From the IMG/VR virus record IMGVR_UViG_2897328257_000003: a stretch of DNA of 64,000 bases; one strand, written 5' to 3'. Shown here in pieces: positions 5,490 to 64,000 of the stretch; within the stretch, counting starts at the first letter, position 1, and the number at the start of each line of letters is the position of its first letter. Made by a program: the position numbers and the translations under genes. The stretch is from a virus. Its lineage: Duplodnaviria; Heunggongvirae; Uroviricota; Caudoviricetes. Under the pieces are notes generated by a model. It did no database searches, was not told where the DNA came from, and saw only the letters and a list, made by a program, of their open reading frames with translations.

Positions 5490-5602
5490 ATTGTTACTGT
5501 TATGGATATCCAGATTGTTAAAGAGCATGCCGGATGCTTGCTTGTGTCCGGCGCGTGTGCACCAGTTCTCCCCGTGGAGGATTCCTTAACTACCAGACTT
5601 CA

Positions 5603-5755: not shown

Positions 5756-5791
5756 GTTGACCTCATTTGCCCTTAACGCCGGGTCGCGGAA

Positions 5792-6016: not shown

Positions 6017-6050
6017 AAACCCGGAGGGAAGCTACCGGATTTATGCAGAT

Positions 6051-6470: not shown

Positions 6471-6549
6471 AAGTTCAATGATATTTGCTATTGAATGTAC
6501 TGTCAGTTCTGTTATATTGTGTACTCAAAGTTCACATTGTGAGGGTGAT
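6471..6549. promoter_or_regulatory. Divergent promoter/operator region of the immunity switch (repressor vs cro-like gene)
   Basis: 79-bp AT-rich intergenic region between divergent start codons, with repeated TGTAC-containing half-sites (..aatgtactgtcag..tgtgtactcaa..). Confidence 0.5.
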
Positions 6550-6816
6550 ATGAGCCATACAACACTTGCAGATGTAATCAAAGCAGTTCGCGTTTCTGTT
6601 GTAGCCGATGTTTGCGGTGTCAGCCAAAGAGCAATCTACAAATGGATGAATAATGGAAAATTACCGCGCACAGAATATACAGGCGAAACAAATTACGCTG
6701 AAAAAATTGCTCTGGCATCAAACGGATTATTTTCTGCTGATGCGGTTTTGACTATTGGCAGGATTAAGCCTACAGCGAATGAATCACTGGCGGTGAACAA
6801 TGAAAATCACCCCTGA
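6550..6816 (+). CDS. Cro-position HTH protein, YdaS/DicC-like
   Basis: 88 aa from ATG 6550 preceded by GAGGG; HTH-like ..VADVCGVSQRAIYKWMNNGKLP..; divergent from the repressor. Confidence 0.7.
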   Translation: MSHTTLADVIKAVRVSVVADVCGVSQRAIYKWMNNGKLPRTEYTGETNYAEKIALASNGLFSADAVLTIGRIKPTANESLAVNNENHP

Positions 6817-7351
6817 ACAGGTTTGTGAGGCTCTGGATGCCTGGGTATGCCGACCAGGAATGACACAGGAGCAGGCGACGATATTAATCACGGAAGCATT
6901 CTGGGCTCTGAAAGAACGCCCGAACATCGATGTTCAACGCGTCACGTTTAATGATGGCGAGGTTGATCAACGGGCGCTGGGCGTTAATCGAGTGAAGATA
7001 TTCGAACGCTGGAAGGCTATCGACACCAGGGATAAGCGTGAAAAATTCACGGCGCTGATTCCGGCAATTATGGAGGCTATCCGGGTAAGTGATTTCAGGT
7101 TGTATTGTGAAATTACTGACGGAAAAAGCATTACGTACATGATCGCCGGGTTAAACAAAGAGTATGGCGATGTGGTGGAGTCCGGGCTGCTTTTTGCGGA
7201 TCCAGTTGTTGTGGAACGTGAGACTGATGAGCTTATAGAAAAAGCCATTGCTTTCAAGCGTGCGTATCGTCAGCAATACCAACATTACTTTGCAGATAAA
7301 CAAATATCTGTCTGGGGTTCGTATGAGTATCGATGCACTACGATGGGCTAA
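6800..7351 (+). CDS. YdaT-like protein (Rac ydaT family as recalled; proposed CII-analogue/toxic protein)
   Basis: 183 aa overlapping the end of the ydaS-like gene; segment ..DKREKFTALIPAIMEAIRVSDFRLYCEITD.. resembles YdaT. Confidence 0.6.
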   Translation: MKITPEQVCEALDAWVCRPGMTQEQATILITEAFWALKERPNIDVQRVTFNDGEVDQRALGVNRVKIFERWKAIDTRDKREKFTALIPAIMEAIRVSDFRLYCEITDGKSITYMIAGLNKEYGDVVESGLLFADPVVVERETDELIEKAIAFKRAYRQQYQHYFADKQISVWGSYEYRCTTMG

Positions 7352-8360
7352 AAAGGTGAAAACCGGCAGTTCATCCAGTAAGTCAGTATTGACCTGGCTT
7401 GCTGATATGTGCGGTGCCGATTTGTGCGCATACCCGTCTATATCTGCACTGGCAGAAGTAACGGAACTGAACAAAAAGACTGTGCAGGACAGTTTACGAC
7501 ACCTGATGGAGATTGGGTTAATTGTTGATACTGGTGAGAGAAAAGGCAGAACAAAGCAAATTGTGGTGTACCGACTTATCGGTGTAGAAGAAAGTGTTGC
7601 CGAGCCTGAATACACCCAAAAACGGGAGTCTTTAAAGGTGGGTAAAATTGGTACTGTTAATAAAAATAGTACCGAAAATGGTTATGTTTCAGCACAAAAC
7701 AGACCCAAAAACGGAACTCTTAGCTGCATGGAAAATAACCAAAGACACCCAAATTTTCCATCAAAGACACCCAAAAACGGATCACGGAACCCAAAGGAAC
7801 CCAAAGATCTAAACCCCACACATAACGCACGCGAGAGTGCTCCGACCAGTGAGCAGGAAGTTTTGTCGTTACAGGCAGCGCCCCCTGTATTCTTGGATGG
7901 CCTGAGCGAACCCATCGGGAAATTTTCGATGACTACTGTCTGGCAGCCGTCGCTGGATTTTCGACAACGGGCAGTAGTGTGGGGTATGGCTCTGCCTGAG
8001 CCGGAATTTACACCTGCAGAGCTTGCCGCATTCCGGGATTACTGGATGGCGGAGGGGAAGGTTTTCACGCAGGTTCAGTGGGAGCAGAAATTTGCCCGTC
8101 ACGTGCAGCACGTCAGGGCACAGGTAAAACCAGTCAGCAAGGGGGTAAGCCATGCAGCATCAGGTGGCACGGCATCACGGGCAGTTCAGGAAATCCGGGC
8201 AGCACGCGAACAGTGGGAACGTGAAAACGGATTTATCAGCAACGGAAACGGCCTGGAAGCTGTGGGAGCTTATGGGGGAGGTGTATTCGAACCGCTGGAC
8301 TCAGAAGAATGGGGCCGCACCTTCGAAGCTCTGGATTGCCCAGATTGGTGCGATGACTGA
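7323..8360 (+). CDS. Replication initiation protein: N-terminal winged-helix DNA-binding domain, low-complexity linker, C-terminal DnaT-like domain
   Basis: C-terminal ..GKFSMTTVWQPSLDFRQRAVVWGMALPEPEFTPAELAAFRDYWMAEGKVFTQVQWEQKFAR.. closely parallels E. coli DnaT as recalled; iteron-like repeats inside the linker-coding DNA. Confidence 0.7.
   Translation: MSIDALRWAKKVKTGSSSSKSVLTWLADMCGADLCAYPSISALAEVTELNKKTVQDSLRHLMEIGLIVDTGERKGRTKQIVVYRLIGVEESVAEPEYTQKRESLKVGKIGTVNKNSTENGYVSAQNRPKNGTLSCMENNQRHPNFPSKTPKNGSRNPKEPKDLNPTHNARESAPTSEQEVLSLQAAPPVFLDGLSEPIGKFSMTTVWQPSLDFRQRAVVWGMALPEPEFTPAELAAFRDYWMAEGKVFTQVQWEQKFARHVQHVRAQVKPVSKGVSHAASGGTASRAVQEIRAAREQWERENGFISNGNGLEAVGAYGGGVFEPLDSEEWGRTFEALDCPDWCDD
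7650..7810. repeat. Putative prophage replication origin: AT-rich palindrome followed by iteron-like direct repeats inside the replication gene
   Basis: GGTACTgttaataaaaatAGTACC palindrome; repeats gacccaaaaacggaac (7702-7717) and cacccaaaaacggatc (7768-7783), agacaccca x2, ggaacccaaag x2; analogous to lambda ori within O. Confidence 0.45.
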
Positions 8361-8814
8361 ACAGCAAATCCGTCTGGTCTGCCGTCAGTGCATGGACCGC
8401 TGCCGGGCGGGTGAAACGTGGCCCCCGGACCTGGCTGAGTTTGTTGCGCTGATTTCGGAGAGTGGGGCAAATCCATTTGGTCTTACGGTGGATGCCGTGA
8501 TGGAAGAGTACCGGCGCTGGCGCAATGAATCCTGGCGATACGACGGGAGTGATAAATACCCGTGGCCACAGCCTGTGCTGTACCACATCTGCCTCGAAAT
8601 GCGTACCAGAGGGATTGAGCGCCAGATGACGCAGGGTGAGTTAAAACGACTTGCGGAACGGCAACTGACGAAATGGGCAAAGCATGTTGGTAACGGGATG
8701 AGTGTTCCGCCAGTGCGACGACAACTGGAAGGGGCGAAACACCCGAAAGGGCCAACGCCAATTGAACGGCTGAAACAGGAATACGAACGCCGGAAGGCTG
8801 CTGGTTTTATTTGA
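8152..8814 (+). CDS. Lambda P-like replication protein (DnaB helicase loader family)
   Basis: 220 aa; strong RBS AAGGGGG before ATG 8152; ..TWPPDLAEFVAL.. and ..YPWPQPVLYHICLEMRTRGIERQMTQGELKRLAERQL.. parallel lambda P; overlaps the previous ORF by ~209 nt in another frame. Confidence 0.7.
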   Translation: MQHQVARHHGQFRKSGQHANSGNVKTDLSATETAWKLWELMGEVYSNRWTQKNGAAPSKLWIAQIGAMTEQQIRLVCRQCMDRCRAGETWPPDLAEFVALISESGANPFGLTVDAVMEEYRRWRNESWRYDGSDKYPWPQPVLYHICLEMRTRGIERQMTQGELKRLAERQLTKWAKHVGNGMSVPPVRRQLEGAKHPKGPTPIERLKQEYERRKAAGFI

Positions 8815-8847
8815 ATCTGGGAAACGATTTTGTCGGAGGAAATTTTA

Positions 8848-9564
8848 ATGGAAACCGTATTTGACGCACTGAAAGCACTGAAAAGAGCCTCTTCACAGGT
8901 AGTGGCGGCCCGCCTTGGAATCAGCCGTGAAGATGCGGTCAACGAACTGTGGAAACTGAAGCGCCGTGGTGAAGCGGATAACAAGGGGTCGATGTGGTGG
9001 CTGACTCAGGCAGGTGAAAGTGAACCAGTGTCACCGGTACCGAAAGTGACAGCGCAAATGCTGACTGAGGCGATTGAACAACATGGCCCACAAACGGCGG
9101 ATGAGCTGGCACTTATGTTCGGGATTACCTCCCGCCGGGCGAATTCATCGCTGGCCATGGCAATCAGCAAAGGGCGTCTGATTCGCGTAAATCAGGGCGG
9201 TAAATTTCGTTACTGCATACCGGGCGCTGATTTACCGGCAGAGCCGGAAGCTGCATCCGTAGCGGAAACCGATGGTAAAGCCTTTCCTCAGCCAGCAGGT
9301 GTTGCGTTACCAGTCCAGGAAACGACGACACAGGAAGAAATGAAAACAGAAATCGTGGAAGACATTGTGAAGTTACAGCCATCGGTCACCGAAACGAAAG
9401 CAGATAACCTGATTCTACCATCGCTGCATGTGGCTAACCGCGAGCTGCGCCGGGCAAAAGGTCAGGTTCAGAAGTGGGAGCGAGTCTGCGCCGCGCTGCG
9501 GGAGCTGAACAAGTGCCGGGATATTCTCTGGGATATTACCGCCACCAGAGAACAGCAGCGGTGA
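8848..9564 (+). CDS. Hypothetical prophage protein with two winged-helix-like segments (DUF1627-like as recalled)
   Basis: ATG 8848 preceded by GGAGGA at good spacing; ORF track places an upstream TTG at 8830. Confidence 0.55.
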
Positions 9565-9878
9565 GTGGGTGGAAGACGTGGTGCCGGGCTGAAATTCTGA
9601 TACTCCGGCAGTGCGCGGGAACAATGAAGGTAAAAAGCATTGGCGCACTTATCGGACGAACTGAAGCGGCAGTGAGAACGAAGGCACGGGAGTTGGGCAT
9701 CAGCATGATGTTACGTGGTGATTTTCACCCGTCGGCAAAATATTCTCAGCGTGATATTGAGCTGGCGCGGCAACTGCATCAGAGAGGCATGCAAAGAAGG
9801 GAAATTGCCAGAAAATTAGGCATGCCGCTGCGCATAGTGAATAACTACGTTTATTTCGACAGGAGGGTTCAGGCGTGA
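9561..9878 (+). CDS. Small DNA-binding protein with GcrA-like N-terminal HTH and a second sigma-70 region-4-like HTH
   Basis: GTG start overlapping the upstream stop (GTGA); pattern W..E.L....G.....I...+G.T.AV..K...LG resembles the GcrA N-terminus. Confidence 0.45.
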
Positions 9879-10180
9879 GGGTGAGCATTTATATCGCCGG
9901 TCCAATGACGGGATATGAAAATTTCAACCGCGAGGCGTTTCACAGGGCGGAAGAAGCACTGAAACGGGAAGGGCATACCGTTTTAAACCCGGCAGTACTT
10001 CCGGACGGGCTGACTCAGCCGCAGTACATGGATATTTGCATGGCAATGATTCGTTGTGTGGATGCGGTTTATATGCTGAAAGGCTGGCAGCGATCGGCAG
10101 GCGCTAAGGCAGAACTGGCACTGGCGGAGAAACTGGGACATGCGGTTATTTTCCAGGAGGCAACCAGTGAGCGAAATTAA
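9875..10180 (+). CDS. DUF4406-like protein (nucleoside 2-deoxyribosyltransferase-like fold family)
   Basis: 101 aa; GTG start after AGGAGGG with overlapped upstream stop; N-terminal ..VSIYIAGPMTGYENFNREAF.. is the characteristic motif as recalled. Confidence 0.65.
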   Translation: MRVSIYIAGPMTGYENFNREAFHRAEEALKREGHTVLNPAVLPDGLTQPQYMDICMAMIRCVDAVYMLKGWQRSAGAKAELALAEKLGHAVIFQEATSERN

Positions 10181-10329
10181 TTACCAGGAGCTACGGCAGG
10201 TGAAAGAGAAAGCATAATCCAGATCTGAATAATTAAAATCAGCACTGTAAATAAAATTTAATCCTTAACCGGAGGGATTTCTGCACCCTCAGAACATCAG
10301 GAGACCGCCAGAAAGGGCGGTAATGAAAA

Positions 10330-10698
10330 ATGACTGAATTAACAAAAGAGCAATTAATCAAAGAAGCCAAATTAAAAATAGCGGTTGCGAAATGTTACCC
10401 TAATTCAGAGATGGCCAGGGTAGAGGGAGAGCTATTCAAAATTGCACTGGCATCGCTGGAGGCGGTTCCGGTGGCATGGCTGCATTCAGACAATGGCCTG
10501 GGTATTCCAGCAATAACCAGGAGTAAAAACGTTGCTGATAGTTGGTTATCAAAGGGCTGGTATGTTCAGCCGTTATATGTAGCCCAACCTGTACCGGTGG
10601 TGCCGGATGCTCGTCCATCTTTAAATAATGGCATTGTCGGATTTGATGAAGGCTGGAATGCCTGCCGGGATGCCATGCTTAATGGAGATAAATCATGA
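10330..10698 (+). CDS. Hypothetical protein (122 aa), first gene of a coupled three-gene module; C-terminal ..EGWNACRDAML.. motif
   Basis: ORF after a 150-bp AT-rich intergenic region with promoter-like sequence and a hairpin just before the start; stop overlaps the next start (ATGA). Confidence 0.6.
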   Translation: MTELTKEQLIKEAKLKIAVAKCYPNSEMARVEGELFKIALASLEAVPVAWLHSDNGLGIPAITRSKNVADSWLSKGWYVQPLYVAQPVPVVPDARPSLNNGIVGFDEGWNACRDAMLNGDKS

Positions 10699-11396
10699 TT
10701 AATCGTATCAAACTGGAGCACATCCTCGAATATGCCGGGCAGCAGAGGCATATTGGTCAGCATTGTAAAATTCCACCAGGAGATATGGTTGAAATCATGG
10801 AGATTGCCATGCGCAAGGCTGGCAACCCTCCGGTAACTCCGGGGCGTTTGCCTGGCGGTTTCACCATTGAGGAGGCGAAGGAGTTACATGAAGACCTGGT
10901 GCGCAGCCACATAAGCAAGGCTTTAAGTGGCGAAAAGATGAAGAAGAAGGATCTCGATGCTGATTTGCGCTGGATCCATGGGGTTATAGTCCAGGCCGCC
11001 TGGTTTGTAAAAGCATCACTGGAGCAGAATGTGCTAACGGGTAACTCTCAGGTAATCCCTGATGACGGTCGCGAACAGTTTGAAACACTTATCAGGTTCC
11101 ATGCAGATGATAAAAACCATGAAACATTATTGCTTCGTGCTAACGAAGGGATGAATTACCGGGATCCAAATGTGGATTTGGCATGGATATTCTGGAAATC
11201 CAGTCGAGAGCACATATTGCCTGGAAAAAGCGACAATAATCCAGCATCAGGCGATCAGGTAAGTGAATTAACAATGTGGGTGAAGCGGTTATCTCATTCC
11301 TTAAAAAGCGTTAATAAATCAAGCAAACTACCGGATAAAGCGATGGACTACCTGAAGCGAAACGGACTGATAAACGAGGAGAATATTTTACGATGA
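10695..11396 (+). CDS. Hypothetical protein (233 aa), second gene of the coupled module
   Basis: ATGA overlaps with both neighbours; no recognised domain. Confidence 0.6.
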   Translation: MINRIKLEHILEYAGQQRHIGQHCKIPPGDMVEIMEIAMRKAGNPPVTPGRLPGGFTIEEAKELHEDLVRSHISKALSGEKMKKKDLDADLRWIHGVIVQAAWFVKASLEQNVLTGNSQVIPDDGREQFETLIRFHADDKNHETLLLRANEGMNYRDPNVDLAWIFWKSSREHILPGKSDNNPASGDQVSELTMWVKRLSHSLKSVNKSSKLPDKAMDYLKRNGLINEENILR

Positions 11397-11476
11397 CCTG
11401 GCCTGAAGCGTTCATAACGGTAGGAATTGCAATGGCGGTGGCGCTGGTGGTGTATTCGATTTGCCGCTGGGGATAA
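11393..11476 (+). CDS. Putative 27-aa hydrophobic (single transmembrane-like) peptide, third gene of the module
   Basis: Hand-translated MTWPEAFITVGIAMAVALVVYSICRWG; start overlaps the upstream stop (ATGA); below ORF-track cut-off. Confidence 0.3.
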   Translation: MTWPEAFITVGIAMAVALVVYSICRWG

Positions 11477-11538
11477 AAACGGTTTGCGGGGAAAGAAGAG
11501 TTAAGTAGAATTGCTGCGGGTGCTTGAGGCTGTCTGCC

Positions 11539-52025: not shown

Positions 52026-52062
52026 ACAGGGTTGGCTGGGCACAGGAATAACAGACAAAAAG

Positions 52063-52086
52063 ATGGGGGACCATCACTTCCCCCAT
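52063..52086 (-). terminator. Hairpin followed by a T-run on the minus strand; candidate terminator downstream of the YkgJ-like gene
   Basis: atggggga-ccatcact-tcccccat inverted repeat; minus-strand continuation cttttt. Confidence 0.4.
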
Positions 52087-52215
52087 GAACTGCGTTGATT
52101 ATGTCATTATTGTGAAGAGACCTTACCTACACAGATAAAGAATGCCACGGAAAAGTTAATTCCGGAAGTGACGGAAATCTCATTTTTCGTGCATCCTGTT
52201 GATATGGATGATTTT

Positions 52216-52545
52216 TCAGATTTCCGGAAGTCCGTATTTTGCCCGGGCGCGGTTGCATGCTTCATTCGCGATGCCATTTTCTCCGGACATTGCGAATTCC
52301 CGGCATGTGGACGGACGGTTTTTGTAAACAGAGCAATATGCGTTTTCACCCGGAGTTCCCGCCAGAGCGACACATCGGGGATTTTTCTGACTTGTGCCGC
52401 GCATACAGCGATGAAAGGGGGATATTTGCTCAGTGAGACTGACCGGAACCTTTCCGCCAGCATCGTCAGCTTCTGCCCAGTAAAAAGAGACGCGGAAAAA
52501 TGCACAACAGGCACCACACGTCATGCATGGATTCGGATTGTTCAT
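52216..52545 (-). CDS. YkgJ-like CxxCxxCC zinc/iron-chelating domain protein (UPF0153-like as recalled)
   Basis: 109 aa; N-terminal [17 protein letters not shown].. motif; sits between the N-run and the potB 3' end, i.e. in apparent prophage-end DNA. Confidence 0.65.
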
Positions 52546-52634
52546 TTTTATACTATTTGTTGTTTTTTCAGCGATCAGATCAAAGGGCGCTGAAAAAAAA
52601 CATTCTCCAAAATTAGATTATAACTATTTGATTT

Positions 52635-52668
52635 TATGGATAGAGGCATGCTTTTTACGCAAAAGTAA
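52635..52668. terminator. Perfect 14-bp-stem hairpin just downstream of potB; candidate bidirectional terminator or palindromic binding site
   Basis: ggcatgctttttac-gcaaaa-gtaaaaagcatgcc. Confidence 0.4.
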
Positions 52669-52710
52669 AAAGCATGCCAAATTTGCTATTAACTCTTTGA
52701 ATATTCAGCA

Positions 52711-53574
52711 CTAATCATCTATTTCGGTTGCCTTCTTATTCAGCAGACGAGAAGCGCGCCAGTAAACCAGCAACATCAGGCCCATTACGATAGTCAGCGT
52801 AATGCTGGTGGCTGCACCAAACGGCCAGTCACGAATATTGAGGAACTGGACCTTGATGACGTTACCGATCAGCAGGTTTTTCGCACCGCCCATCAGGTCG
52901 GATACATAGAACAGGCCCATCGCTGGCAGCATCACCAGCAGACATCCGGCAATAATTCCCGGCATCGTCAGTGGAATAATGATACGGATAAAAGTCTGTA
53001 ACTTGCTGGCACCGAGATCGCGCGCCGCCTCAAGCAACGGCTTATCCAGTTTTTCGATACTGGAGTACAGCGGCATCACCATAAACGGTAGCAGAATGTA
53101 AACCAGACCGATAATCACCGCACTGGGCGTGAACATGATACGAATTGGTGTGTCGATAACGCCCAGCCAGAGCAAAAACTCGTTGAGATAGCCTTTGGTG
53201 CTGAGGAAAATTTTCAGCCCGTAGATGCGAATCAGTGAGTTGGTCCAGAAGGGAACAATCAGCAGAAACAGCAGCAGCGGACGCACCTTGTGTGGTAGCT
53301 TCGCTAGAAACCAGGCAAACGGGTAGCCCAGCACCAGGCAGGCGAGGGTGGCGATCAGCGCCATATTCAGCGAGTGCAATAGCACTTCAAAATAGAGCGG
53401 ATCGAGCAGACGCGTGTAGTTATCCAGCGTAAAGACCATTTTGACGAAACTGGCGTCGTCGCGGGTCAAAAAGCTGGTGCCAATGATCATCAGGTTGGGC
53501 AGAAAGACAAACAACACAAGCCAACCGACAATAGTGACAATCACTACATTCTGGAACTTACTTGTGTTCTTCAT
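52711..53574 (-). CDS. potB: Spermidine/putrescine ABC transporter permease PotB, C-terminus apparently altered
   Basis: 287 aa, multi-TM permease, overlaps the potA stop as in the pot operon; ends ..[11 protein letters not shown] and is ~12 aa longer than the 275 aa I recall for K-12 PotB; no potC downstream. Confidence 0.85.
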
Positions 53575-54694
53575 CAGCCAGTACGACCTCCCAGCTTTCT
53601 ACCCAATTAATGGCCATTTTTTGGTCGAGAGAGTGGTCAAAGTCAGGGTCGTCTTCATTGAAGAATTCGCTGACCATCACCATCTTGCCATTTTCCAGTT
53701 CAACAACCGACTCCAGCGTCATGCCTTTGTAGTTACGCTCACGAACGTAACCAATCAGCCCTTCAGCGTGGTTGTCGTCGTTAATCTCTTCAACACGTAA
53801 GTCTTCCGGGCGCAGCAGAACATGCAGTTTTTGCCCCGGTTCAACGGCGAAGTTAACGTAGATATTACATTCGCGGCCTTCAACGTTGGCGCGTACGCGC
53901 TGCTCGTCTAGACGTTCGATGACAGTGGCGTTAAACATATTGATTTCGCCAATGAAGCCGGCAACAAACAGGTTTTTCGGCTCTTCGTAAATTTCGCGCG
54001 GTGTACCATCTTGCTCAATACGACCCTCGCGCATCACCACAATCCTGTCTGACATGGTGAGCGCTTCTTCCTGATCGTGAGTGACAAAGACGAAGGTAAT
54101 ACCAAGCTTACGCTGTAACGCTTTCAGCTCGTTCTGCATTTGCTTACGCAGTTTGTAATCCAGCGCTGAGAGCGACTCATCCAGCAACAACAGACGAGGC
54201 TTGTTAACCACCGCGCGAGCAATGGCGACGCGTTGCTGTTGACCACCAGAGAGCTGATGCGGTTTACGTTGAGCGAAGGTTTCCAGTTGCACCATCCGCA
54301 GGGCTTCCATCACGCGGGGCGTAATTTCAGCAGCGGGGGTTTTTTGCATGCGCAACCCAAAGGCCACATTTTCGAACACGGTCATGTGGGGGAAAAGTGC
54401 GTAGCTTTGGAAAACAGTGTTCACATAGCGGTTTTCCGCCGGAACGTGGGTGATGTCCTCGTTATCCAGCATGATGCGTCCGGAATCAACAGTTTCCAGA
54501 CCTGCAATCAGGCGAAGAACGGTTGTTTTACCGCAGCCAGAAGGGCCAAGCAGCGTGAGGAACTCGCCATTGTTGATAGTCAGATCCAGCTGGGGAATGA
54601 CCTCTTTACCATCAAAGCATTTGCGAATTCCCGCCAATTGCACCAGCGGTGAAAGCGAACTCGGTTGTTTATTCAATTTTTTACTCTGTCCCAT
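53558..54694 (-). CDS. potA: Spermidine/putrescine ABC transporter ATP-binding protein PotA
   Basis: 378 aa; Walker [13 protein letters not shown] signature LSGGQQQR, Walker B LLLLDE; divergent from pepT. Confidence 0.95.
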
Positions 54695-54943
54695 GTAAAC
54701 GCAACGGATGGCTTACCGATGCGGGGTTTGTGGTTAACCACCTTGGTGACTCTTAATGAGGGCGGTAATTCTACGGCAAACCGCTTGAATCGCCAATCTT
54801 TGTTGTGAATTACTGGCTTAGCTTTATATTCATTAAGGTAATGCTGATAAATATTCCCGCTTGCAGGGGTAAAAGTGACCTGACGCAATATTTGTCTTTT
54901 CTTGCTTCTTAATAATGTTGTCACAAAAAGTGAGGGTGACTAC

Positions 54944-56173
54944 ATGGATAAACTACTTGAGCGATTTTTGAACTACGTGTCTCTGGATACCCAATCAAAA
55001 GCAGGGGTGAGACAGGTTCCCAGCACGGAAGGCCAATGGAAGTTATTGCATCTGCTGAAAGAGCAGCTCGAAGAGATGGGGCTTATCAATGTGACCTTAA
55101 GTGAGAAGGGCACTTTGATGGCGACGTTACCGGCTAACGTCCCTGGCGATATCCCGGCGATTGGCTTTATTTCTCATGTGGATACCTCACCGGATTGCAG
55201 CGGCAAAAATGTGAATCCGCAAATTGTTGAAAACTATCGCGGTGGCGATATTGCGCTGGGTATCGGCGATGAAGTTTTATCACCGGTTATGTTCCCGGTG
55301 CTGCATCAGCTACTGGGTCAGACGCTGATTACTACCGATGGTAAAACCTTGTTAGGTGCCGATGACAAAGCCGGTATTGCAGAAATCATGACCGCGCTGG
55401 CGGTATTGCAACAGAAAAACATTCCGCATGGTGATATTCGCGTCGCCTTTACCCCGGATGAAGAAGTGGGCAAAGGGGCGAAACATTTTGATGTTGATGC
55501 CTTCGATGCCCGCTGGGCTTACACTGTTGACGGTGGTGGCGTAGGTGAACTGGAGTTTGAAAACTTCAACGCCGCATCGGTCAATATCAAAATTGTCGGT
55601 AACAATGTTCATCCGGGCACGGCGAAAGGAGTGATGGTAAATGCGCTGTCGCTGGCGGCACGTATTCATGCGGAAGTTCCGGCGGATGAAAGCCCGGAAA
55701 TGACAGAAGGCTATGAAGGTTTCTATCACCTGGCGAGCATGAAAGGCACCGTTGACCGAGCCGATATGCACTACATCATCCGTGATTTCGACCGTAAACA
55801 GTTTGAAGCGCGTAAACGTAAAATGATGGAGATCGCCAAAAAAGTGGGCAAAGGGTTACATCCTGATTGCTACATTGAACTGGTGATTGAAGACAGTTAC
55901 TACAATATGCGCGAGAAAGTGGTTGAGCATCCGCATATTATCGATATCGCCCAGCAGGCGATGCGTGACTGCGATATTGAACCGGAACTGAAACCGATCC
56001 GCGGCGGTACCGACGGCGCGCAGTTGTCGTTTATGGGATTACCGTGCCCGAACCTGTTCACTGGCGGTTACAACTATCATGGTAAGCATGAGTTTGTGAC
56101 TCTGGAAGGTATGGAAAAAGCGGTGCAGGTGATTGTCCGTATTGCCGAGTTAACGGCGCAACGGAAGTCGTGA
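54944..56173 (+). CDS. pepT: Peptidase T (tripeptide aminopeptidase)
   Basis: Begins [19 protein letters not shown] (internal Met of the track ORF 54902..56173); M20-family metal-binding motifs; conserved position next to potA. Confidence 0.95.
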
Positions 56174-56318
56174 TTGCCCGATGCGTATGTGGACTGCCAA
56201 TTACCGGGATGAAACCGTTATATTGATACTGGTCAACATACTTATCGTGCCTACAGGCGTTCAGTGCATGTAGGCACGATAAGGCGCAATCAGCGCCGCA
56301 TCCGGCTTAAATCCAAAC

Positions 56319-57440
56319 TTACCCTTCGAAGAACCAATACCCGCTATTGACCAGCGCCGCGAGCATCGCGAGGAATGACGGATCTTCCAGCGCATCGCCA
56401 AAATTCTCCGCAGTCAGCGCAATGTTGCTGGCGAGTGCATCCAGTGCCGGACGGTGCGGGGAATCGATCTTCTCACCATTGGCATACACGTCGTCGCCAA
56501 TGCGCAATACGCGCAGACCACCCAGGCGCACCAGCACATCACCTTGTTTCAGCGCATCGTAGATTTCATCTGGCTGATAAGGCGGTTCCGGCGGCGCGAT
56601 ATCCAGTTCATGACGTGACTGGGATATAAACTCGCCAAACCATTGCTTAAAGTGTTCCGGCTGGTTGATCAATTCGAGCATCATCTCACGCAGTTTATCC
56701 ATCTCTTGCGGCAGAACATCCGCAGGATGAGCGCGAGGTGGAACATCAGGATCGCTGTAGTAGTTGCCGCCCAGTTCACGTTGCAGCACATAATCGGCAA
56801 ATCCACTAATCAGTTCCCGCGTATTTGGCGCGCGAAAGCCCACGGAATAGTTCATCGCATTTTCCAGCGCGTAGCCTTCATGCGGGAATCCTGGCGGAAT
56901 ATAAAGAATATCACCAGGCTCCAGCTCTTCATCGATGATGGCTTCGAACGGATCGACCTGTAACAGATCCGGATGTGGGCAGTGCTGTTTCATTTGCAGC
57001 TTTTCGCCCACTCGCCAGCGACGACGTCCGGTACCCTGAATGATAAACACGTCGTACTGATCGAGATGCGGGCCGACGCCGCCGCCAGGTACAGAAAAAG
57101 AGATCATCAGATCATCAATACGCCAGTCCGGTAGTTCACGGAACGGTCGCATCAGCGCGGCGGTCGGCTCATGCCAGTGGTTTACTGCCTGTACCAGTAA
57201 TGACCAGTTGGTTTCACCGAGATGATCGTAGCTTTCGAACGGGCCGTGGCTGACCTGCCATTTGCCATCCTGGTGACTGACCAGTCGACTGTCAACTTCG
57301 CTTTCCATCGCCAGACCCGCCAACTCGTCTGGAGAGATCGGGTCAATAAAATTATTAAAGCCGCGTTTTAACACCACCGGGCGTTTCTGCCAGTGACGTT
57401 CAAGAAAATCGGGCCAGTTAAGAGTGAGTTGGTATTCCAT
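56319..57440 (-). CDS. roxA: Ribosomal protein uL16 arginine hydroxylase RoxA (YcfD), cupin/JmjC-like
   Basis: 373 aa from the second ATG (MEYQLTLNWPDFLERHW..); conserved neighbour of pepT in E. coli. Confidence 0.9.
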   Translation of the reverse strand: MEYQLTLNWPDFLERHWQKRPVVLKRGFNNFIDPISPDELAGLAMESEVDSRLVSHQDGKWQVSHGPFESYDHLGETNWSLLVQAVNHWHEPTAALMRPFRELPDWRIDDLMISFSVPGGGVGPHLDQYDVFIIQGTGRRRWRVGEKLQMKQHCPHPDLLQVDPFEAIIDEELEPGDILYIPPGFPHEGYALENAMNYSVGFRAPNTRELISGFADYVLQRELGGNYYSDPDVPPRAHPADVLPQEMDKLREMMLELINQPEHFKQWFGEFISQSRHELDIAPPEPPYQPDEIYDALKQGDVLVRLGGLRVLRIGDDVYANGEKIDSPHRPALDALASNIALTAENFGDALEDPSFLAMLAALVNSGYWFFEG

Positions 57441-57491
57441 GTTAAGCATCCACAGGCTGGTATCTGCAACCGATTATAACGGATGCTTAAC
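57441..57491 (-). promoter_or_regulatory. roxA 5' region: 11-bp inverted repeat with 29-nt spacer containing a TATAAT on the roxA strand
   Basis: gttaagcatcc ... ggatgcttaac; right arm repeats the ATGCTTAAC that precedes the roxA start; spacer contains ccgTTATAATcgg on the minus strand. Confidence 0.3.
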
Positions 57492-57667
57492 GTAATGCGT
57501 GAAGTATGGACATATTTTATCAATTAGTGTTTTTTGCCGTTTCATAATGTTTCAGGTTGTGCGTTATGTTTTTGATTATAAACAGATTTGTGATTTTTCT
57601 TGTTCCAGCTTGTTTCACGTTGTAGCCCTTTGTGCAACGATCGGTGTAGTTAATGGTGTAGTTAATT

Positions 57668-58918
57668 GTGATGACCGGATTCAAAATTATGAGCAGAGCA
57701 CTTAACAAACTGAGCGATACACAGCTGAGGAAAATCAACGGCACACCCGCCCAAAAAACAGCCTTTCTTAATGACGGTGGAAACCTGAGCGTCAGGCATT
57801 CAACCAGTGGCCTTTTAACCTGGTATTTCACTTACAGGGCCGGAACGGGAAGGGGGGCACCACCGGAACGCATTAAGCTGGGAAATTATCCTGATCTGAG
57901 CCTGAAATCAGCCAGGGAAAAAGCCGCCCAGTGTCGCGCATGGCTGGCAGAGGGGAAAAATCCACGTCATGAAATGAATTACACCGTACAGGAAGCGTTA
58001 AAGCCGGTAACGGTTGGCGATGCGCTCACCTACTGGCTTGAGTCGTACGCAAAGGAAAACCGTGTGGATTATGACCCACTGAAAAAGCGGCTAAATAATC
58101 ACGTAATACAGCACATTGGCCCTATGCCGCTGGATAAATGCGAGCTACGGCACTGGCTGGCCTGTTTTGATCGGGTGGCAAAGAAAGCCCCTGTTTCCGC
58201 CGGGTTCCTGCTACAGACATGCAAGCAGGCGCTTAAGTTCTGCAGGAAGCGGCGCTATGCAATCAGCAACGTTCTTGATGATATGAGTGTGGCGGACGTT
58301 GGGAAAAAACCGGATATAAGTGAGCGTGTCTTAAGTAACAAAGAACTTGGCGAATTATTGCAGGCACTGGACAAAAAAATATTTTCCCCTTACTACGTCG
58401 CACTAATCCGCCTCCTGATTGTTTTCGGATGCCGGACAGTAGAACTGAGGTTATCGGAGATCGGCGAGTGGGATTTTACCGAAATGCTCTGGACCGTTCC
58501 GAAGGAGCACAGCAAAACGAAGGTAGCCATATTCCGGCCCATACCGGAAGCGATACTGCCGTTCGTCACGCAGCTGGTGGAGCAGAACAGGCACACGGGC
58601 TTATTGCTGGGGGAAGTGAAACAGGAAACCAGCGTATCGCAGTACGGCAGATTAGCGCACAGGAGGCTAAAACACCCTCAATGGTCATTGCATGACATCC
58701 GGCGCACCTTTACAACCATGCTGAACGATTTAGGCGTTGATCCTCACGTCGTGGAGCAGCTTACAGGTCATCAGATGCCAGGGATGCAACGAGTCTATAA
58801 CCACTCCCGTTATCTCGATGCGAAACGTGATGCGCTGGATATGTGGACGGAGCGGTTAGGAATACTGGCGGGAACACATGAAAACGTAACCACGCTACCA
58901 GTAACCAGAATAAAATAA
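57668..58918 (+). CDS. Tyrosine integrase, P4 family (DUF4102-type N-terminus); start may be 57671 or 57689
   Basis: 416-aa ORF; N-terminal ..LSDTQLRKINGT..DGGNLSV..W.FTYR..G..P..+.LGNYPDLSLKSAREKA.. pattern of P4-type integrases. Confidence 0.85.
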   Translation: MMTGFKIMSRALNKLSDTQLRKINGTPAQKTAFLNDGGNLSVRHSTSGLLTWYFTYRAGTGRGAPPERIKLGNYPDLSLKSAREKAAQCRAWLAEGKNPRHEMNYTVQEALKPVTVGDALTYWLESYAKENRVDYDPLKKRLNNHVIQHIGPMPLDKCELRHWLACFDRVAKKAPVSAGFLLQTCKQALKFCRKRRYAISNVLDDMSVADVGKKPDISERVLSNKELGELLQALDKKIFSPYYVALIRLLIVFGCRTVELRLSEIGEWDFTEMLWTVPKEHSKTKVAIFRPIPEAILPFVTQLVEQNRHTGLLLGEVKQETSVSQYGRLAHRRLKHPQWSLHDIRRTFTTMLNDLGVDPHVVEQLTGHQMPGMQRVYNHSRYLDAKRDALDMWTERLGILAGTHENVTTLPVTRIK

Positions 58919-59144
58919 TTTTTTTCGTGTTTTTTCAGTATGCGCATACTGGATAAGTGCACAGATACAACGTGAAACAATGTGCAACAACGTGACANNN
59001 NNNNNNNNATACTGGCGGGAACACATGAAAACGTAACCACGCTACCAGTAACCAGAATAAAATAATTTTTTTCGTGTTTTTTCAGTATGCGCATACTGGA
59101 TAAGTGCACAGATACAACGTGAAACAATGTGCAACAACGTGACA
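58862..59144. repeat. Exact ~136-bp direct duplication flanking a ~10-nt N-run (approx. 58998-59008); probable contig-join artefact
   Basis: atactggcgggaacacatgaaaacg...caacaacgtgaca occurs identically before and after the N-run; first copy includes the integrase 3' end. Confidence 0.6.
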
Positions 59145-59254
59145 CAATCACGAACAAGAGGCCAAAAAGAATACAGATTTGTAAGTTACTGATTTTCAAT
59201 GCTCAGCTGGTTTTTTATACATTAGTGAATTACGCGTTAAAGCGTGCGAAAAAA

Positions 59255-59285
59255 GGCATAAAACAAGATTTTATGCCTTTGTATT
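59255..59285 (+). terminator. Hairpin plus T-tract; candidate rho-independent terminator between the integrase and alpA regions
   Basis: aaaaaa-ggcataaaa-caaga-ttttatgcc-tttgtatt. Confidence 0.45.
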
Positions 59286-59439
59286 AACATGAATTTAAAT
59301 GATTTTATCCTGATTATTCCTCTTTCTGTAAACCATGCGACACCAACATTTGCCAACTCTGAATCATCCTGACACAATCAGACACATCCCAACGCAATAG
59401 AACACGAAATAACTCTTTAAGAAACGAAAGGGGGCAATA

Positions 59440-59628
59440 GTGTTAAGCACTGATCGGTTTATACGTGAAAAAGAATGCGAAAAGCTAACAGGCCTTAGCC
59501 GCTCATGCCGCTACCGCCTGGAAAAGGCCGGACAATTCCCATCACGTCGTAAACTTGGTGGGCGTTCTGTTGGCTGGTCTTTATCTGAGGTTTTGGCCTG
59601 GAAGGATAGCTGCAAGGCAGTTCACTAA
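59440..59628 (+). CDS. alpA: AlpA-family phage transcriptional regulator
   Basis: 62 aa; GTG start after AAGGGGG; ..RRKLGGRSVGWSLSEVLAW.. matches the AlpA family pattern. Confidence 0.8.
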   Translation: MLSTDRFIREKECEKLTGLSRSCRYRLEKAGQFPSRRKLGGRSVGWSLSEVLAWKDSCKAVH

Positions 59629-59968
59629 AAAGACTGGCGGCACACAGTCGCCACACATCCACTAATACAGAGATATAACTATGAAGATTGAATATGCGCC
59701 CGAACGTGGGCGGGGATTCGTTCGCCCTGGTGAAACTGAAAAACAACAAAATTGGGGTTTTTCAGGCATAAAAAAAGCGGCCCCGATATGGAGCCGCCTT
59801 TCTGAACAATTAACCTGCTGCGCCTTATGTGTATGTGATCCCAAACATAAGCACGGGAATGATAGCCGCTATCAGGCTGGTGGGCAATTACCTTGCTTGT
59901 TGGGGCCGTATTGTGCTGCCATTTTCATCCGTTCAGAACGTGAATATTTTTTTAGAAACTCATCAAGG

Positions 59969-60591
59969 NNNNNNNNNNNNNNNNNNNNNNNNNNNNNNNN
60001 NNNNNNNNNNNNNNNNNNNNNNNNNNNNNNNNNNNNNNNNNNNNNNNNNNNNNNNNNNNNNNNNNNNNNNNNNNNNNNNNNNNNNNNNNNNNNNNNNNNN
60101 NNNNNNNNNNNNNNNNNNNNNNNNNNNNNNNNNNNNNNNNNNNNNNNNNNNNNNNNNNNNNNNNNNNNNNNNNNNNNNNNNNNNNNNNNNNNNNNNNNNN
60201 NNNNNNNNNNNNNNNNNNNNNNNNNNNNNNNNNNNNNNNNNNNNNNNNNNNNNNNNNNNNNNNNNNNNNNNNNNNNNNNNNNNNNNNNNNNNNNNNNNNN
60301 NNNNNNNNNNNNNNNNNNNNNNNNNNNNNNNNNNNNNNNNNNNNNNNNNNNNNNNNNNNNNNNNNNNNNNNNNNNNNNNNNNNNNNNNNNNNNNNNNNNN
60401 NNNNNNNNNNNNNNNNNNNNNNNNNNNNNNNNNNNNNNNNNNNNNNNNNNNNNNNNNNNNNNNNNNNNNNNNNNNNNNNNNNNNNNNNNNNNNNNNNNNN
60501 NNNNNNNNNNNNNNNNNNNNNNNNNNNNNNNNNNNNNNNNNNNNNNNNNNNNNNNNNNNNNNNNNNNNNNNNNNNNNNNNNNNNNNNNNNN
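59969..60591. other. Unresolved sequence: 623-nt run of N inside the satellite element
   Basis: Contiguous n characters. Confidence 1.
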
Positions 60592-60708
60592 AGTGATTAT
60601 ACTGGAATCCAGTTGAGTGTTTATCACTCAATGCAAACGAGGCTGAAAAGGATTGCCGTCCTTTCGCAGCCTCTGACCACCAACGATAGCGAAAGTATCG
60701 AGGTAGCT

Positions 60709-60909
60709 ATGAGAAATCATACCACACACCCGCAAGGGCGGGACTCGCACAACCTGAATAAATTCACCTGGCGCTTTATGCAGTGCCTGACAGACAGCAT
60801 TGCAATATTCACCGTTACCGCTGCCACTGAGCGCGAAGCACGCGCACAGCTGCCGCACGCACATCTTATTTTTGTCGCCCGTATTCGTCAGGGGGTGTGC
60901 CGTGCTTAA
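60709..60909 (+). CDS. Icd-like (host cell division inhibitor-like) small protein
   Basis: 66 aa from ATG 60709 after GAGGTAG; ..ATEREARAQLPHAHLIFVARI.. matches the Icd-like motif recalled from P4-like islands. Confidence 0.55.
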   Translation: MRNHTTHPQGRDSHNLNKFTWRFMQCLTDSIAIFTVTAATEREARAQLPHAHLIFVARIRQGVCRA

Positions 60910-61087
60910 AACCTTCCGTGTATTTGCCAGCGCTGTTAACCCACTAGGCCACACAATTGGTATCGCTCAGAATGTGAAGGCTGTTAATGTTCAGACGGCT
61001 ATTGCTGCGGTGAGAAGCGAATCATCAGAATATGGCTTATCACAAGTCATTATTTCAGCAGTGTATGAATTAAAAGAGGTGCATTAA
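60902..61087 (+). CDS. Hypothetical small protein (61 aa, GTG start)
   Basis: ORF beginning inside the icd-like stop region after AGGGGG; ends TAATG overlapping the next start. Confidence 0.4.
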   Translation: MLKTFRVFASAVNPLGHTIGIAQNVKAVNVQTAIAAVRSESSEYGLSQVIISAVYELKEVH

Positions 61088-61278
61088 TGAAGGAAATTAC
61101 ATTACACGAAGCCGCTGAACGTGCGCACCAGACAGAAATTATTTGCCGACTTCTTGAGGTGTACCCTAATAAATTAAATGATGGTGATATATCCGCATTA
61201 GCTGGCCTTCTGGCAAAACTTTCTGGAAGTGTTGCGCTGTGGTTAATTGATGAGAGAGCCGAACGCTATGAAAAATAA
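61087..61278 (+). CDS. Hypothetical small protein (63 aa)
   Basis: ORF in a tightly packed co-directional block upstream of the primase. Confidence 0.5.
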   Translation: MKEITLHEAAERAHQTEIICRLLEVYPNKLNDGDISALAGLLAKLSGSVALWLIDERAERYEK

Positions 61279-61510
61279 TAAACTGGCGACCAGTGAATTA
61301 AGAAGCCTTGCCAACAGCGCAATATCTTTAAACAACGCAGCAAACGAAGTAATGAACATGTGGCTTCAGTCGCTGGTGAATAATGAACGCGATGAATCAA
61401 CCGCAAGATTAATATTAGCCGTTTCTGAATTACTGGATAGTTCAACCAGCAAAATAGAGAGCATATCAGAGAAGATTAACGGCTTATCAGGTCACGCTAT
61501 CGGAGAATAA
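61268..61510 (+). CDS. Hypothetical small protein (80 aa from ATG 61268)
   Basis: ORF overlapping the previous stop by 11 nt; ORF track offers a longer version from 61247. Confidence 0.5.
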   Translation: MKNNKLATSELRSLANSAISLNNAANEVMNMWLQSLVNNERDESTARLILAVSELLDSSTSKIESISEKINGLSGHAIGE

Positions 61511-61515
61511 AAATA

Positions 61516-61815
61516 ATGAAACTTAAATATCCTGGCTTAACTGCCAGCGGCAAAACTCGCACTAAATTCATGCGCGGGGATATTTACCGCGACCAGTACG
61601 GCGGCACGGTAACGATTAAAGGCGTGGAGGAACGGCGCATCACTTACCGCCGTGAAGGCTACGAATATGACTGCGTTATGCCTGTTTATCAGTTCGATCG
61701 TGATTTTTCTCTGGTACAGGCAGCGCCCCGCAGTAAACCAACCAGCAGGGAGAAAGCACGCGCCAATATTCAGGAAATAAAAAAGATGCTTAACGTATTC
61801 AGGGGTAAAAAATGA
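61516..61815 (+). CDS. Hypothetical protein (99 aa) immediately upstream of and coupled to the primase gene
   Basis: ORF with GGAG upstream; stop overlaps the primase start (ATGA). Confidence 0.55.
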   Translation: MKLKYPGLTASGKTRTKFMRGDIYRDQYGGTVTIKGVEERRITYRREGYEYDCVMPVYQFDRDFSLVQAAPRSKPTSREKARANIQEIKKMLNVFRGKK

Positions 61816-63560
61816 AACTGGCACCGAACGTAAAAAAACAGCCACGCGGAATAAAACACAAAGACACAGAGGTGATTATTTTCGCGGGTAGTGATGCGTG
61901 GGCACATGCAAAACAGTGGCAGGAGCAGGACGGCCCCGCATCCGGCGATAATGTGCCTCCTGTGTGGCTTGGGCCAAATCAGCTTGCCGAACTTGATGCA
62001 CTGCAAATTGTTCCTGATGGAAAAAAACGCGTAAGGCTGTACCAGGCAGGAGAACTGGACTTGGTGGAGACCAAAAAGATTGGTCAGAAGCTGGCGGCGG
62101 CAGATATTCAGGACACAAATTTTTACCCCGAAGGAATGCACGCCCAGAAGTGTGAAAACTGGCGGCGCTATCTGAATGCTGAGCGTGAAAATATTGCCGC
62201 AGGGCTTACCATGCCGGAGCAGAAAAATACGCAACTGGCACAAATGGCAGACAGTGAGCGCGCCCAGCTGCTTGCTGGTCGATTTGATGGCGTTTGCGTA
62301 CATCCTGAAAGTGAAATCGTTCACGTATGGCGCGGCGGGGTATGGTGTCCGGTCAGCACAATGGAACTTAGCCGCGAAATGGTGGCGATCTATTCAGAGC
62401 ACAGGGCCACTTTCAGCAAGCGCGTAATCAATAACGCCGTGGAAGCGTTAAAAGTTATTGCCGAACCAATGGGCGAGCCGTCTGGCGATTTGCTGCCGTT
62501 CGCCAATGGTGCGCTTGACCTGAAAACAGGGGAATTTTCCCCGCACACGCCGGAGAACTGGATCACCACGCACAACGGCATTGAGTACACGCCACCAGCA
62601 CCAGGGGAGAACATCCGCGATAACGCGCCAAACTTTCATAAATGGCTTGAGCACGCAGCCGGAAAAGACCCGCGCAAGATGATGCGTATATGTGCCGCGC
62701 TGTACATGATTATGGCGAACCGGTACGACTGGCAGATGTTTATTGAGGCCACCGGAGACGGCGGGAGCGGTAAAAGTACATTCACACACATAGCCAGCCT
62801 TCTGGCAGGGAAACAGAACACGGTAAGCGCTGAAATGACATCGCTTGATGATGCTGGTGGACGTGCGCAGGTTGTCGGGAGTCGTCTTATCGTCCTGGCT
62901 GACCAGCCGAAATATACAGGCGAAGGAACGGGCATCAAGAAAATCACAGGCGGCGACCCCGTGGAAATTAACCCGAAATATGAAAAGCGTTTCACGGCGG
63001 TAATCAGGGCGGTGGTGCTGGCGACCAACAACAACCCGATGATATTCACCGAACGGGCCGGAGGTGTGGCACGTCGTCGCGTGATTTTCCGTTTCGACAA
63101 TATCGTCAGTGAGGCCGAAAAAGACAGGGAGCTACCGGAAAAGATTGCGGCTGAAATCCCCGTTATTATCCGCCGATTGCTGGCGAACTTTACCGACCCT
63201 GAGAAGGCACGGGCTTTACTACTGGAACAGCGTGACGGTGATGAAGCACTGGCAATAAAGCAACAGACGGATCCGGTTATTGAGTTTTGCCAGTTCCTGA
63301 ATTTTCTGGAGGAAGCGCGCGGCCTGATGATGGGTGGCGGTGGTGATTCAGTGAAGTACACGACCAGGAACAGCCTTTACCGCGTCTATCTGGCGTTTAT
63401 GGCATACGCGGGCAGGAGCAAACCGCTAAACGTGGCTGAGTTCAGCAAGGCCATGAAGCCAGCGGCGAAAGTTTACGGGCATGAATATATTACGCGAAAA
63501 GTTAAGGGAGTAACGCAGACCAACGCAATTACAACAGACGATTGCGACGCGTTTTTATAA
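61812..63560 (+). CDS. Phage/plasmid primase-helicase, P4 alpha-like (SF3 P-loop NTPase C-terminal domain)
   Basis: 582 aa; Walker A ..EATGDGGSGKSTFTHIA..; Walker B-like ..LIVLADQP..; standard position in P4-like satellites. Confidence 0.85.
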   Translation: MKLAPNVKKQPRGIKHKDTEVIIFAGSDAWAHAKQWQEQDGPASGDNVPPVWLGPNQLAELDALQIVPDGKKRVRLYQAGELDLVETKKIGQKLAAADIQDTNFYPEGMHAQKCENWRRYLNAERENIAAGLTMPEQKNTQLAQMADSERAQLLAGRFDGVCVHPESEIVHVWRGGVWCPVSTMELSREMVAIYSEHRATFSKRVINNAVEALKVIAEPMGEPSGDLLPFANGALDLKTGEFSPHTPENWITTHNGIEYTPPAPGENIRDNAPNFHKWLEHAAGKDPRKMMRICAALYMIMANRYDWQMFIEATGDGGSGKSTFTHIASLLAGKQNTVSAEMTSLDDAGGRAQVVGSRLIVLADQPKYTGEGTGIKKITGGDPVEINPKYEKRFTAVIRAVVLATNNNPMIFTERAGGVARRRVIFRFDNIVSEAEKDRELPEKIAAEIPVIIRRLLANFTDPEKARALLLEQRDGDEALAIKQQTDPVIEFCQFLNFLEEARGLMMGGGGDSVKYTTRNSLYRVYLAFMAYAGRSKPLNVAEFSKAMKPAAKVYGHEYITRKVKGVTQTNAITTDDCDAFL

Positions 63561-63574
63561 TTTTTTGTAAAAGC

Positions 63575-63795
63575 CATCTACCCCATCTACCTGAACGAAA
63601 TAAACGCATATTATTCAACATGATAAGTGGGTATAGGGCTAGGTAGAAGGCTAATAAAAGCTCTCTACCTCTTCTACCTGATTTTATCAGTTTCAGGTAG
63701 CAGGGTAGACGGCAGGTAGAGGAGTCAAAAAAGCTATCTACCCGCTGAAAGCGGCGCCATTACTGACATGATGAGCATTCGGGTAGATGGGTAGA
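63575..63795. repeat. Iteron array, putative replication origin of the satellite element
   Basis: At least 11 copies of GGTAGA/TCTACC in both orientations within ~220 bp (e.g. catctaccccatctacc, tctacctcttctacc, ggtagcagggtagacggcaggtagagg, gggtagatgggtagagg) just downstream of the primase gene. Confidence 0.6.
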
Positions 63796-63845
63796 GGGGG
63801 GGGAGGCACAACTAAAAACTTTTTAAACGAGGGGGGGTGAAAATA

Positions 63846-64000
63846 AATGCGCATACATAAAAATCACTTAACAAACATGCCAGCCGAATACATGAATCAG
63901 GGGCGACAAATGACCCAAAAACGCAGAGACAGAACAGAGCCAAAATATAAAGCGTTAGACATGACTGAGCACACCTTAAAGGTGGCAATCAGAACGATAG
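63846..64000 (+). CDS. Hypothetical protein, 5' partial view (runs off the window end)
   Basis: ATG 63846 preceded by GAGGGGGGG; open frame to the window end (MRIHKNHLTNMPAEYMNQGRQMTQKRRDRTEPKYKALDMTEHTLKVAIRTI..). Confidence 0.35.

Follow-up and report, generated by a model that had tools for sequence, protein, structure and literature searches.

Which part of the end of potB belongs to the host and which to a phage, and what becomes of an operon when the border runs through its second gene? These questions are raised by the right-hand part of a 64,000-nucleotide viral stretch (IMG/VR record IMGVR_UViG_2897328257_000003), called the window below. Here, the intact genes potA and potB are followed by a hairpin and a YkgJ-like gene where potC would be expected. 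An earlier note, made from the letters of the window, explained this order by a lambdoid prophage inserted in the last codons of potB. The interval concerned, 52546-52760, can be assigned with high confidence to attR: the right end of a lambda-type prophage, produced by Int-type site-specific recombination at the potB/potC boundary.

The attachment core at the end of potB

Alignment of the window to the empty site of prophage-free genomes locates the border precisely. Homology starts at 52731-52742, with identity rightward and no similarity leftward. These twelve bases constitute the att core, CCTT(C/T)TTATTCA, which reads CCTTCTTATTCA in the window and was mapped there as well as in three other loci (L003, L001 and L006). 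The three forms of the site can be read side by side: attR at 52731-52742 of the window (ggttgCCTTCTTATTCAgcagacg), attB in the prophage-free strain JS316 (L001, 3001-3012; ccaCCTTTTTATTCAgcagacg) and attL in strain OkiPb01694 (L003, 4845-4856; ccaCCTTTTTATTCAtaaggcgg). The segment TTATTCA (52736-52742) is identical across attR, attL and attB, and is preceded by CCTT and a single T/C position. All sampled interrupted genomes share one break base at the core.

The variable position of the core is the third base of a lysine codon, and the T/C difference is synonymous. Its use as a marker of the crossover was considered and rejected: the C also occurs in the attL of EC22 and 640R1, as well as in the empty attB of FEX669. 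The latter strain, E. coli O150:H6 FEX669, carries the phage-type C in an uninterrupted potB-potC site (L020, ~1201-1212; CCTTCTTATTCA). This C could be either a synonymous polymorphism of the host or the footprint of a past integration followed by excision.

The phage site, attP, was rebuilt from attR and attL. In this reconstruction, the core lies between two pentamers in inverted orientation, GCCTT and AAGGC, nine bases apart, an arrangement that, to judge from the sequence, is what one would expect of core-type Int half-sites flanking an overlap of 7 bp. Int recombined attP (..GGTTGCCTTCTTATTCATAAGGCGG..) with attB (..CCACCTTTTTATTCAGCAG..) inside the 12-bp, near-identical core, and the attB junction predicted after excision reads ..CCACCTT(T/C)TTATTCAGCAG... 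A search of the phage collection for an intact attP found none: the only int matches, vB_EcoS-640R1 and 813R8, consist of prophage and a flank with potC and potD, and the Stx1a phage records of the collection span attL to attR. In the record ON470612.1, named 'Escherichia phage vB_EcoS-640R1' (L004), host ymfA, potD and potC adjoin int. Since it holds host genes beside int, this record represents a prophage with its chromosomal flank, not a packaged phage genome.

The consequence for PotB is visible in the reading frame. The gene (52711-53574, minus strand) is a chimeric host/phage ORF of 287 aa with a BPD_transp_1 domain (Pfam), corresponding to PotB WP_000799399.1, which measures 864 nt in lysogens. 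On the potB strand, the core encodes Leu-Asn-Lys-Lys; past the second lysine, only phage DNA is found (52711-52730, minus strand), and it supplies A-T-E-I-D-D and a stop codon in place of the host V-E-L-E and stop. The earlier note had let its reading depend on whether prophage-free strains have the C-terminus and the downstream sequence of the window. In the prophage-free strains compared (JS316; K-12 MG1655), potB instead ends in ..LLNKKVELE, the stop codon overlaps the start of potC, and potC is directly adjacent. As the att site lies 5-7 codons before the stop of potB, the P arm of the phage provides the gene end at integration: VELE-stop becomes ATEIDD-stop, the two lysine codons are kept, and PotB remains full-length (287 vs. 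285 aa). The replaced tail presumably lies outside the known functional residues. Among the lysogens, three tail variants occur, ATEIDD, ATEIDN and VSELDD, all of six residues, and potB measures 864 nt in every lysogen examined.

The size of the change had been overestimated. The protein was first described as about 12 residues longer than K-12 PotB; the altered tail was correctly seen, but the true gain is two residues (VELE to ATEIDD), and the other ten result from start-codon annotation. The long potB ORF, starting MKNTSKF.., encodes 285 aa in prophage-free JS316 and in K-12 MG1655, and the MG1655 annotation starts potB 10 codons further in, giving 275 aa. The same choice affects the border with potA (53558-54694, minus strand). 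This gene is intact, as described, and overlaps the long potB ORF by 17 nt, but the overlap depends on the start codon chosen: with the MG1655-annotated start, there is none.

The prophage, its two borders and the divided operon

The opposite end of the prophage carries the recombination genes. A lambda-type tyrosine integrase of 372 aa is encoded at 1-1119 (minus strand), with the Pfam domains Arm-DNA-bind_1 (E 4e-21) and Phage_integrase (E 6e-19). Its residues 26-371 match the lambda Int structures 1z1b/1z1g (E 2e-55), and the protein is 97% identical to the integrases that adjoin potC in four other lysogens, among them O157:H7, EC22 and ETEC4085. The start of int is overlapped by the excisionase gene xis (1088-1357, minus strand). 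Its match to the Pfam family Exc (PF07825, E 8e-5) is at the cut-off; in matching lysogens, the gene is annotated as excisionase WP_000003742.1.

The stop codon of int occupies positions 1-3 of the window, and attL lies just outside. Together with potC and potD, the left junction was read from other genomes. The first 4.4 kb of the window match several closed STEC genomes (O113:H21 and related) at 99.1-99.9%. In lysogens with a 99.9% identical int region, the same core is present at a position equal to 144-155 bp left of window position 1, the side on which it had been suggested to look for it. In OkiPb01694, an intact potC-potD pair lies 166 bp beyond int, and int is likewise followed by potC-potD in O157:H7 Rafaela_II, EC22, ETEC4085 and 640R1, with an almost identical attL and P' arm. 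The proposal that the prophage separates potAB from potCD thus holds: prophage-free strains have potC adjacent to potB, lysogens have potC-potD beyond int.

The readable DNA of the window comprises 1-11538 and 52026-64000, separated by a run of 40,487 N (11539-52025) that covers most of the prophage interior. By the annotation of its relatives, the early region in 1-11538 is lambdoid, with exo, dicB and cI/cro-like genes. The closest closed relative, OkiPb01694, contains a complete lambdoid Stx2 phage of 48 kb at the same site, and the stretch corresponding to the run of N carries lambdoid replication, Q, stx2A/B, lysis, head and tail genes. The prophage of the window is ~4.7 kb longer and would measure ~52.9 kb if its left flank is alike. 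This agrees with the lambdoid prophage of at least ~52 kb, inserted in the last codons of potB, that had been postulated: the length is ~52-53 kb, the junction lies at the core, and the lambda-type int/xis genes are found at the opposite end, pointing outward.

Two details of the interior can be added. In OkiPb01694, stx2A and stx2B are located downstream of the antiterminator, together with three tRNA genes, and the counterpart of this region in the window is N. A second, 11-base run of N (4412-4422) lies just upstream of dicB (~4141-4329 by the annotation of L003), where the small RNA DicF would presumably be expected. An Rfam scan of the whole window returned no match at the gathering threshold.

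On the right, a spacer of 165 bp separates potB from a phage cargo gene of the YkgJ/CxxCxxCC family (52216-52545, minus strand; Pfam PF03692, E 5e-12), which has the same orientation as potB and whose counterpart in relatives is annotated as a YkgJ family cysteine cluster protein. A YkgJ-like gene and then the run of N (11539-52025) therefore stand in the place of potC, just as had been described. Before this run, the last codons of a plus-strand, tail-fibre-associated gene are readable; its counterpart in relatives carries the annotation DUF4376 domain protein. The ykgJ-like gene is itself followed by a hairpin that resembles a terminator and has a T-run (52063-52086, minus strand), with an 8-bp stem containing 5 G-C pairs and the tail CTTTTTGTCT. 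From its sequence, it is likely the end point of minus-strand transcripts that come from potAB or from the att region. A promoter scan of 52026-53000 gave no promoter-like site, including none for ykgJ; by eye, a TATAAT is recognizable on the minus strand at 52622-52617, without a -35 element. With no promoter-like site found in 52026-53000 and no terminator-like one before the end of ykgJ, potAB transcription would, most simply, be expected to continue into the cargo gene.

The gene beside attR differs among the phages that use this site. It is a ykgJ-family gene here and espK in O157:H7, O145:H28 and O45:H2; in 2013C_3277, a gene like nleG (DUF1076) is accompanied by a chaperone gene, and a second group carries a SAM methyltransferase gene. 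In other phages at the site (L009-L012), the ykgJ-like gene is reduced to its first 9-22 codons (window 52480-52545 region), after which their espK or nleG-like/chaperone cargo begins. The slot beside attR has the appearance of a cargo locus open to exchange, where a remnant of ykgJ has stayed behind, and the retention of these first codons in related phages suggests that ykgJ is the older occupant.

At the left border, as seen in the relatives, potC has retained its own ATG along with 26 nt of the native leader, in which the AGGTGG ribosome-binding site lies. Judged from these relatives only, the gene would be cut off from the potA promoter by the ~53-kb prophage and would now be situated downstream of int. 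A promoter scan of attL and of the 3' region of int detected no promoter-like site on the potC strand. The attL of OkiPb01694 (L003, 4831-4857) also creates an ORF of eight codons, ATG AAT AAA AAG GTG GAA CTC GAA TGA (MNKKVELE). Its stop overlaps the ATG of potC as the native potB stop does, and the A of its own ATG is phage DNA. No obvious ribosome-binding site precedes this mini-ORF, and little weight is given to it as a meaningful feature.

It is rather improbable that, in the ~30% of E. coli genomes with a phage at this site, the insertion alters the wiring of the pot operon with real consequences for physiology. If it did, potAB would read through att into the cargo (ykgJ here, espK in O157), which would come under the polyamine-regulated potA promoter. 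On the other side, that promoter would no longer serve potCD, whose expression would hang on transcription running leftward from the prophage through int, and the uptake of spermidine would be tied to the state of the prophage. The conserved, acidic six-residue tail of PotB and the MNKKVELE mini-ORF would be compatible with selection that keeps both halves usable. The literature searched holds no answer on PotABCD spermidine uptake or on potCD transcription in these lysogens; a transcriptome paper gives fold changes for potA-D and does not mention the splitting of the operon (PMC7649339).

The presumptive P arm of attP and its palindrome

The DNA between the core and the cargo gene has the makings of a P arm. 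The flagged interval would contain, in this order, a candidate arm-type site, an IHF consensus and a 14-bp palindrome, with the ykgJ-family cargo beyond. The candidate Int arm-type site, TCTCCAAAA, is located at 52604-52612 (plus strand), at -135..-127 from the core centre. It is the sole match in the window and is kept in both P-arm sequence types. In the P' arm, the motif TCYCCAAAA occurs in three tandem copies, at +51, +62 and +75, which are the only matches in the 14.4-kb locus of OkiPb01694 (L003). If these candidates are functional, their layout closely resembles that of P1 and P'1-P'3 in lambda. The IHF consensus, WATCAANNNNTTR, occupies 52621-52633 on the minus strand, at -118..-106 in the P arm. 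It is the sole exact match in the window, but as about one match per window is expected by chance, it carries little weight by itself and is informative through its position. Between the core and int, on the P' side, no IHF consensus was found within one mismatch. A literature search returned no Int, Xis or IHF binding experiment on this att site.

The arm also contains a palindrome, a 14-bp stem free of mismatches around a 6-nt spacer (GGCATGCTTTTTAC N6 GTAAAAAGCATGCC), with its halves at 52645-52658 and 52665-52678, that is, -94..-61 from the core centre. The stem itself had been recognized before, but it was placed at 52635-52668; the true location, 52645-52678, is 10 nt higher. Folded alone, the hairpin reaches -21.8 kcal/mol, with a z-score of ~-6 and 0 of 200 shuffles as good. 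It sits inside the presumptive P arm of attP, between the candidate arm-type/IHF sites and the core. Related phages keep the stem with one or two mismatches, and the version of O145:H28 still reaches -21.8 kcal/mol. No covariation was detected: the available variants keep or weaken the stem, and no compensatory change is seen among them. An Rfam search of the att region at E<=1 gave chance-level matches only, leaving the hairpin without a family. In the second P-arm type, whose phages share the same Xis and have an Int of 97% identity, the corresponding segment is unrelated and contains a weak 6-bp dyad with a z-score of -1.85. A second hairpin, A/T-rich (T6-CAGCG ... CGCTG-A6+), lies nearby at 52563-52598 and folds at -15.1 kcal/mol (z-score -3.0); no T-run follows it on either strand.

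The palindrome could be an element of the P arm at the level of DNA, needed for the assembly of the intasome, as the site of a dimeric accessory or directionality factor, as a bend or as a cruciform. This is conceivable, though doubtful. The location fits, as -94..-61 falls between the candidate arm-type site (-135) and IHF consensus (-118..-106) on one side and the core on the other. In the corresponding stretch of its P arm, lambda has Xis and Fis sites. However, a site for Xis or Int should lie in conserved blocks, and the phages with the same Xis (WP_000003742.1) and a 97% identical Int show no similarity here: their unrelated segment argues against the palindrome as an Xis or Int site.

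A role of the hairpin in RNA, comparable to that of lambda sib/tI, is unlikely. It would then act downstream of int in the excised phage and cap the potAB or potAB-ykgJ message in the lysogen. In the reconstructed attP, read along the int strand, the hairpin comes ~205-240 nt after the stop of int, and lambda sib lies at about such a distance from int. A retroregulator would be a hairpin that follows int across attP and is parted from it by integration; the palindrome agrees with this arrangement in position only. Diverged phages have altered loops and upper stems but still form the hairpin, and the second P-arm type has another dyad in the corresponding position, although it is weaker (z-score only -1.85). 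On the other side, for a site of RNase III, a stem of 14 bp is short; the changes seen in the stem weaken it, with no covarying pairs among them; no U-run is present for a terminator like tI; and no Rfam family is matched. The hairpin is also closer to the core than lambda sib, in a place where accessory-protein sites are expected.

Finally, the earlier note had suggested that the hairpin might end readthrough from potAB, as an intrinsic terminator halting transcription at the prophage border. This is quite improbable, even if the stem-loop is very stable and, read along the potB strand, comes 33 nt after the stop of that gene. No T/U-run follows the stem on either strand (it is succeeded by TCTATCCA on the minus and by AAATTTGC on the plus strand), the terminator scan made no call there, and the upper half of the stem consists of A/U only. 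Moreover, the ykgJ-like gene follows in the same orientation, with no promoter-like site in 52026-53000 and a terminator-like site only at 52086-52063, with which read-through fits better. The hairpin is not a canonical intrinsic terminator.

Occupation of the site and comparison with known systems

The potB-potC junction is uninterrupted in 3800 of 5426 complete E. coli genomes, and a phage-type attR with a phage-supplied potB end is present in 1608 of them (~30%). The probability that the altered potB end is instead an ordinary allelic variant, or an artefact of assembly or masking with potC just displaced by the run of N, is negligible, and this explanation counts as refuted for practical purposes: a 40.5-kb run of N does separate the readable parts, and attL does lie outside the window, but the divergence from empty sites occurs at one precise base common to the 1608 complete genomes, closed genomes show int-attL-potC on the left and ykgJ-attR-potB on the right of one 48-kb prophage, and all three PotB tail variants occur only with phage DNA downstream. 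Integration of a lambda-type prophage at the potB/potC boundary is the reading adopted here.

The site itself is not new. That potC/potB is a lambdoid attachment region, as the earlier note had it, is supported by the literature, where the site is named potC or potB/potC. It is the insertion site of the O157 Sakai prophage Sp6 (PMC8190617), prophages at the potC/potB bacteriophage insertion site have been described (PMC11052207), and prophage J of O104:H4 uses the same site (PMC3486847). The Stx2 phages of O113:H21 and other LEE-negative STEC are inserted at potC, disrupt potAB-CD and share one integrase type (PMC9453080). PMC8065619 credits Steyert et al. 2012 with the first report of this Stx-phage site. 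A prophage at potB/potC is thus already known, ordinary and catalogued, and the splitting of the operon is already in print. What is added here is modest: the core at the level of the base, the six-residue substitute tail of PotB in three variants, and the numbers of occupied and empty sites (1608 of 5426 vs. 3800).

Further to the right, the window contains a second integrated element, immediately after roxA (57689-64000). It starts with a P4-type tyrosine integrase (57689-58918, plus strand; Arm-DNA-bind_3 and Phage_integrase in Pfam), after which an HTH regulator comes in the matching genome, and it is interrupted by two runs of N, 58998-59008 and 59969-60591. In OkiPb01694 and K-12, phoQ directly follows roxA; in O157:H7, a 10.4-kb prophage-like element lies between roxA and phoQ (PMC8190617). 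Between pepT and roxA, an 18-nt inverted repeat with 94% complementarity and a 7-nt spacer (56241-56283) is probably a shared terminator or a REP-like element.

Among the known systems, Sakai Sp6 and the other potC/potB prophages have the same attB and the same core as the phage of the window, together with a 97% identical Int, an identical Xis and a nearly identical P' arm. They also provide the same kind of six-residue replacement tail to PotB. The differences lie in the details: the tail is ATEIDN in the O157, O145 and O45 phages vs. ATEIDD here, and the Sp6-type phages carry espK beside attR, whereas the window has a ykgJ-family gene. Their hairpin is mismatched, in contrast to the perfect one of the window. 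The Stx2 phages of O113:H21 and LEE-negative STEC are close as well: the int region is identical at 99.1-99.9%, and the nearest closed genome carries stx2 at this site. In the window, however, the stx region is N, so that stx is visible only in the relative, and the prophage is ~4.7 kb longer than that of OkiPb01694.

The resemblance with lambda concerns the organization of the site. Int is a homologue of the three-domain lambda enzyme, int and xis lie beside attL, and a 7-bp identical segment is found between inverted core-type half-sites. The candidate sites would extend this likeness to the arms, with three tandem arm-type repeats in P' at ~+50 to +85, one copy in the P arm at ~-130 and an IHF consensus in the P arm. 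Unlike in lambda, attB is located in the end of a gene, not between gal and bio, and the sequences of the core and of the arms are others. Furthermore, the P arm yielded only a single recognizable arm-type copy, a search for an H' consensus gave nothing, and the sites described here have candidate status.

Integration into the 3' end of a gene is known from e14 and phage 21 at icd, where attP carries a substitute end and the target gene stays open. The phage of the window does the same, its attP supplying a substitute 3' end for potB. Two differences set it apart. The new tail is no copy of that of the host (VELE vs. ATEIDD, ATEIDN or VSELDD), and the insertion splits an operon, parting two translationally coupled genes.
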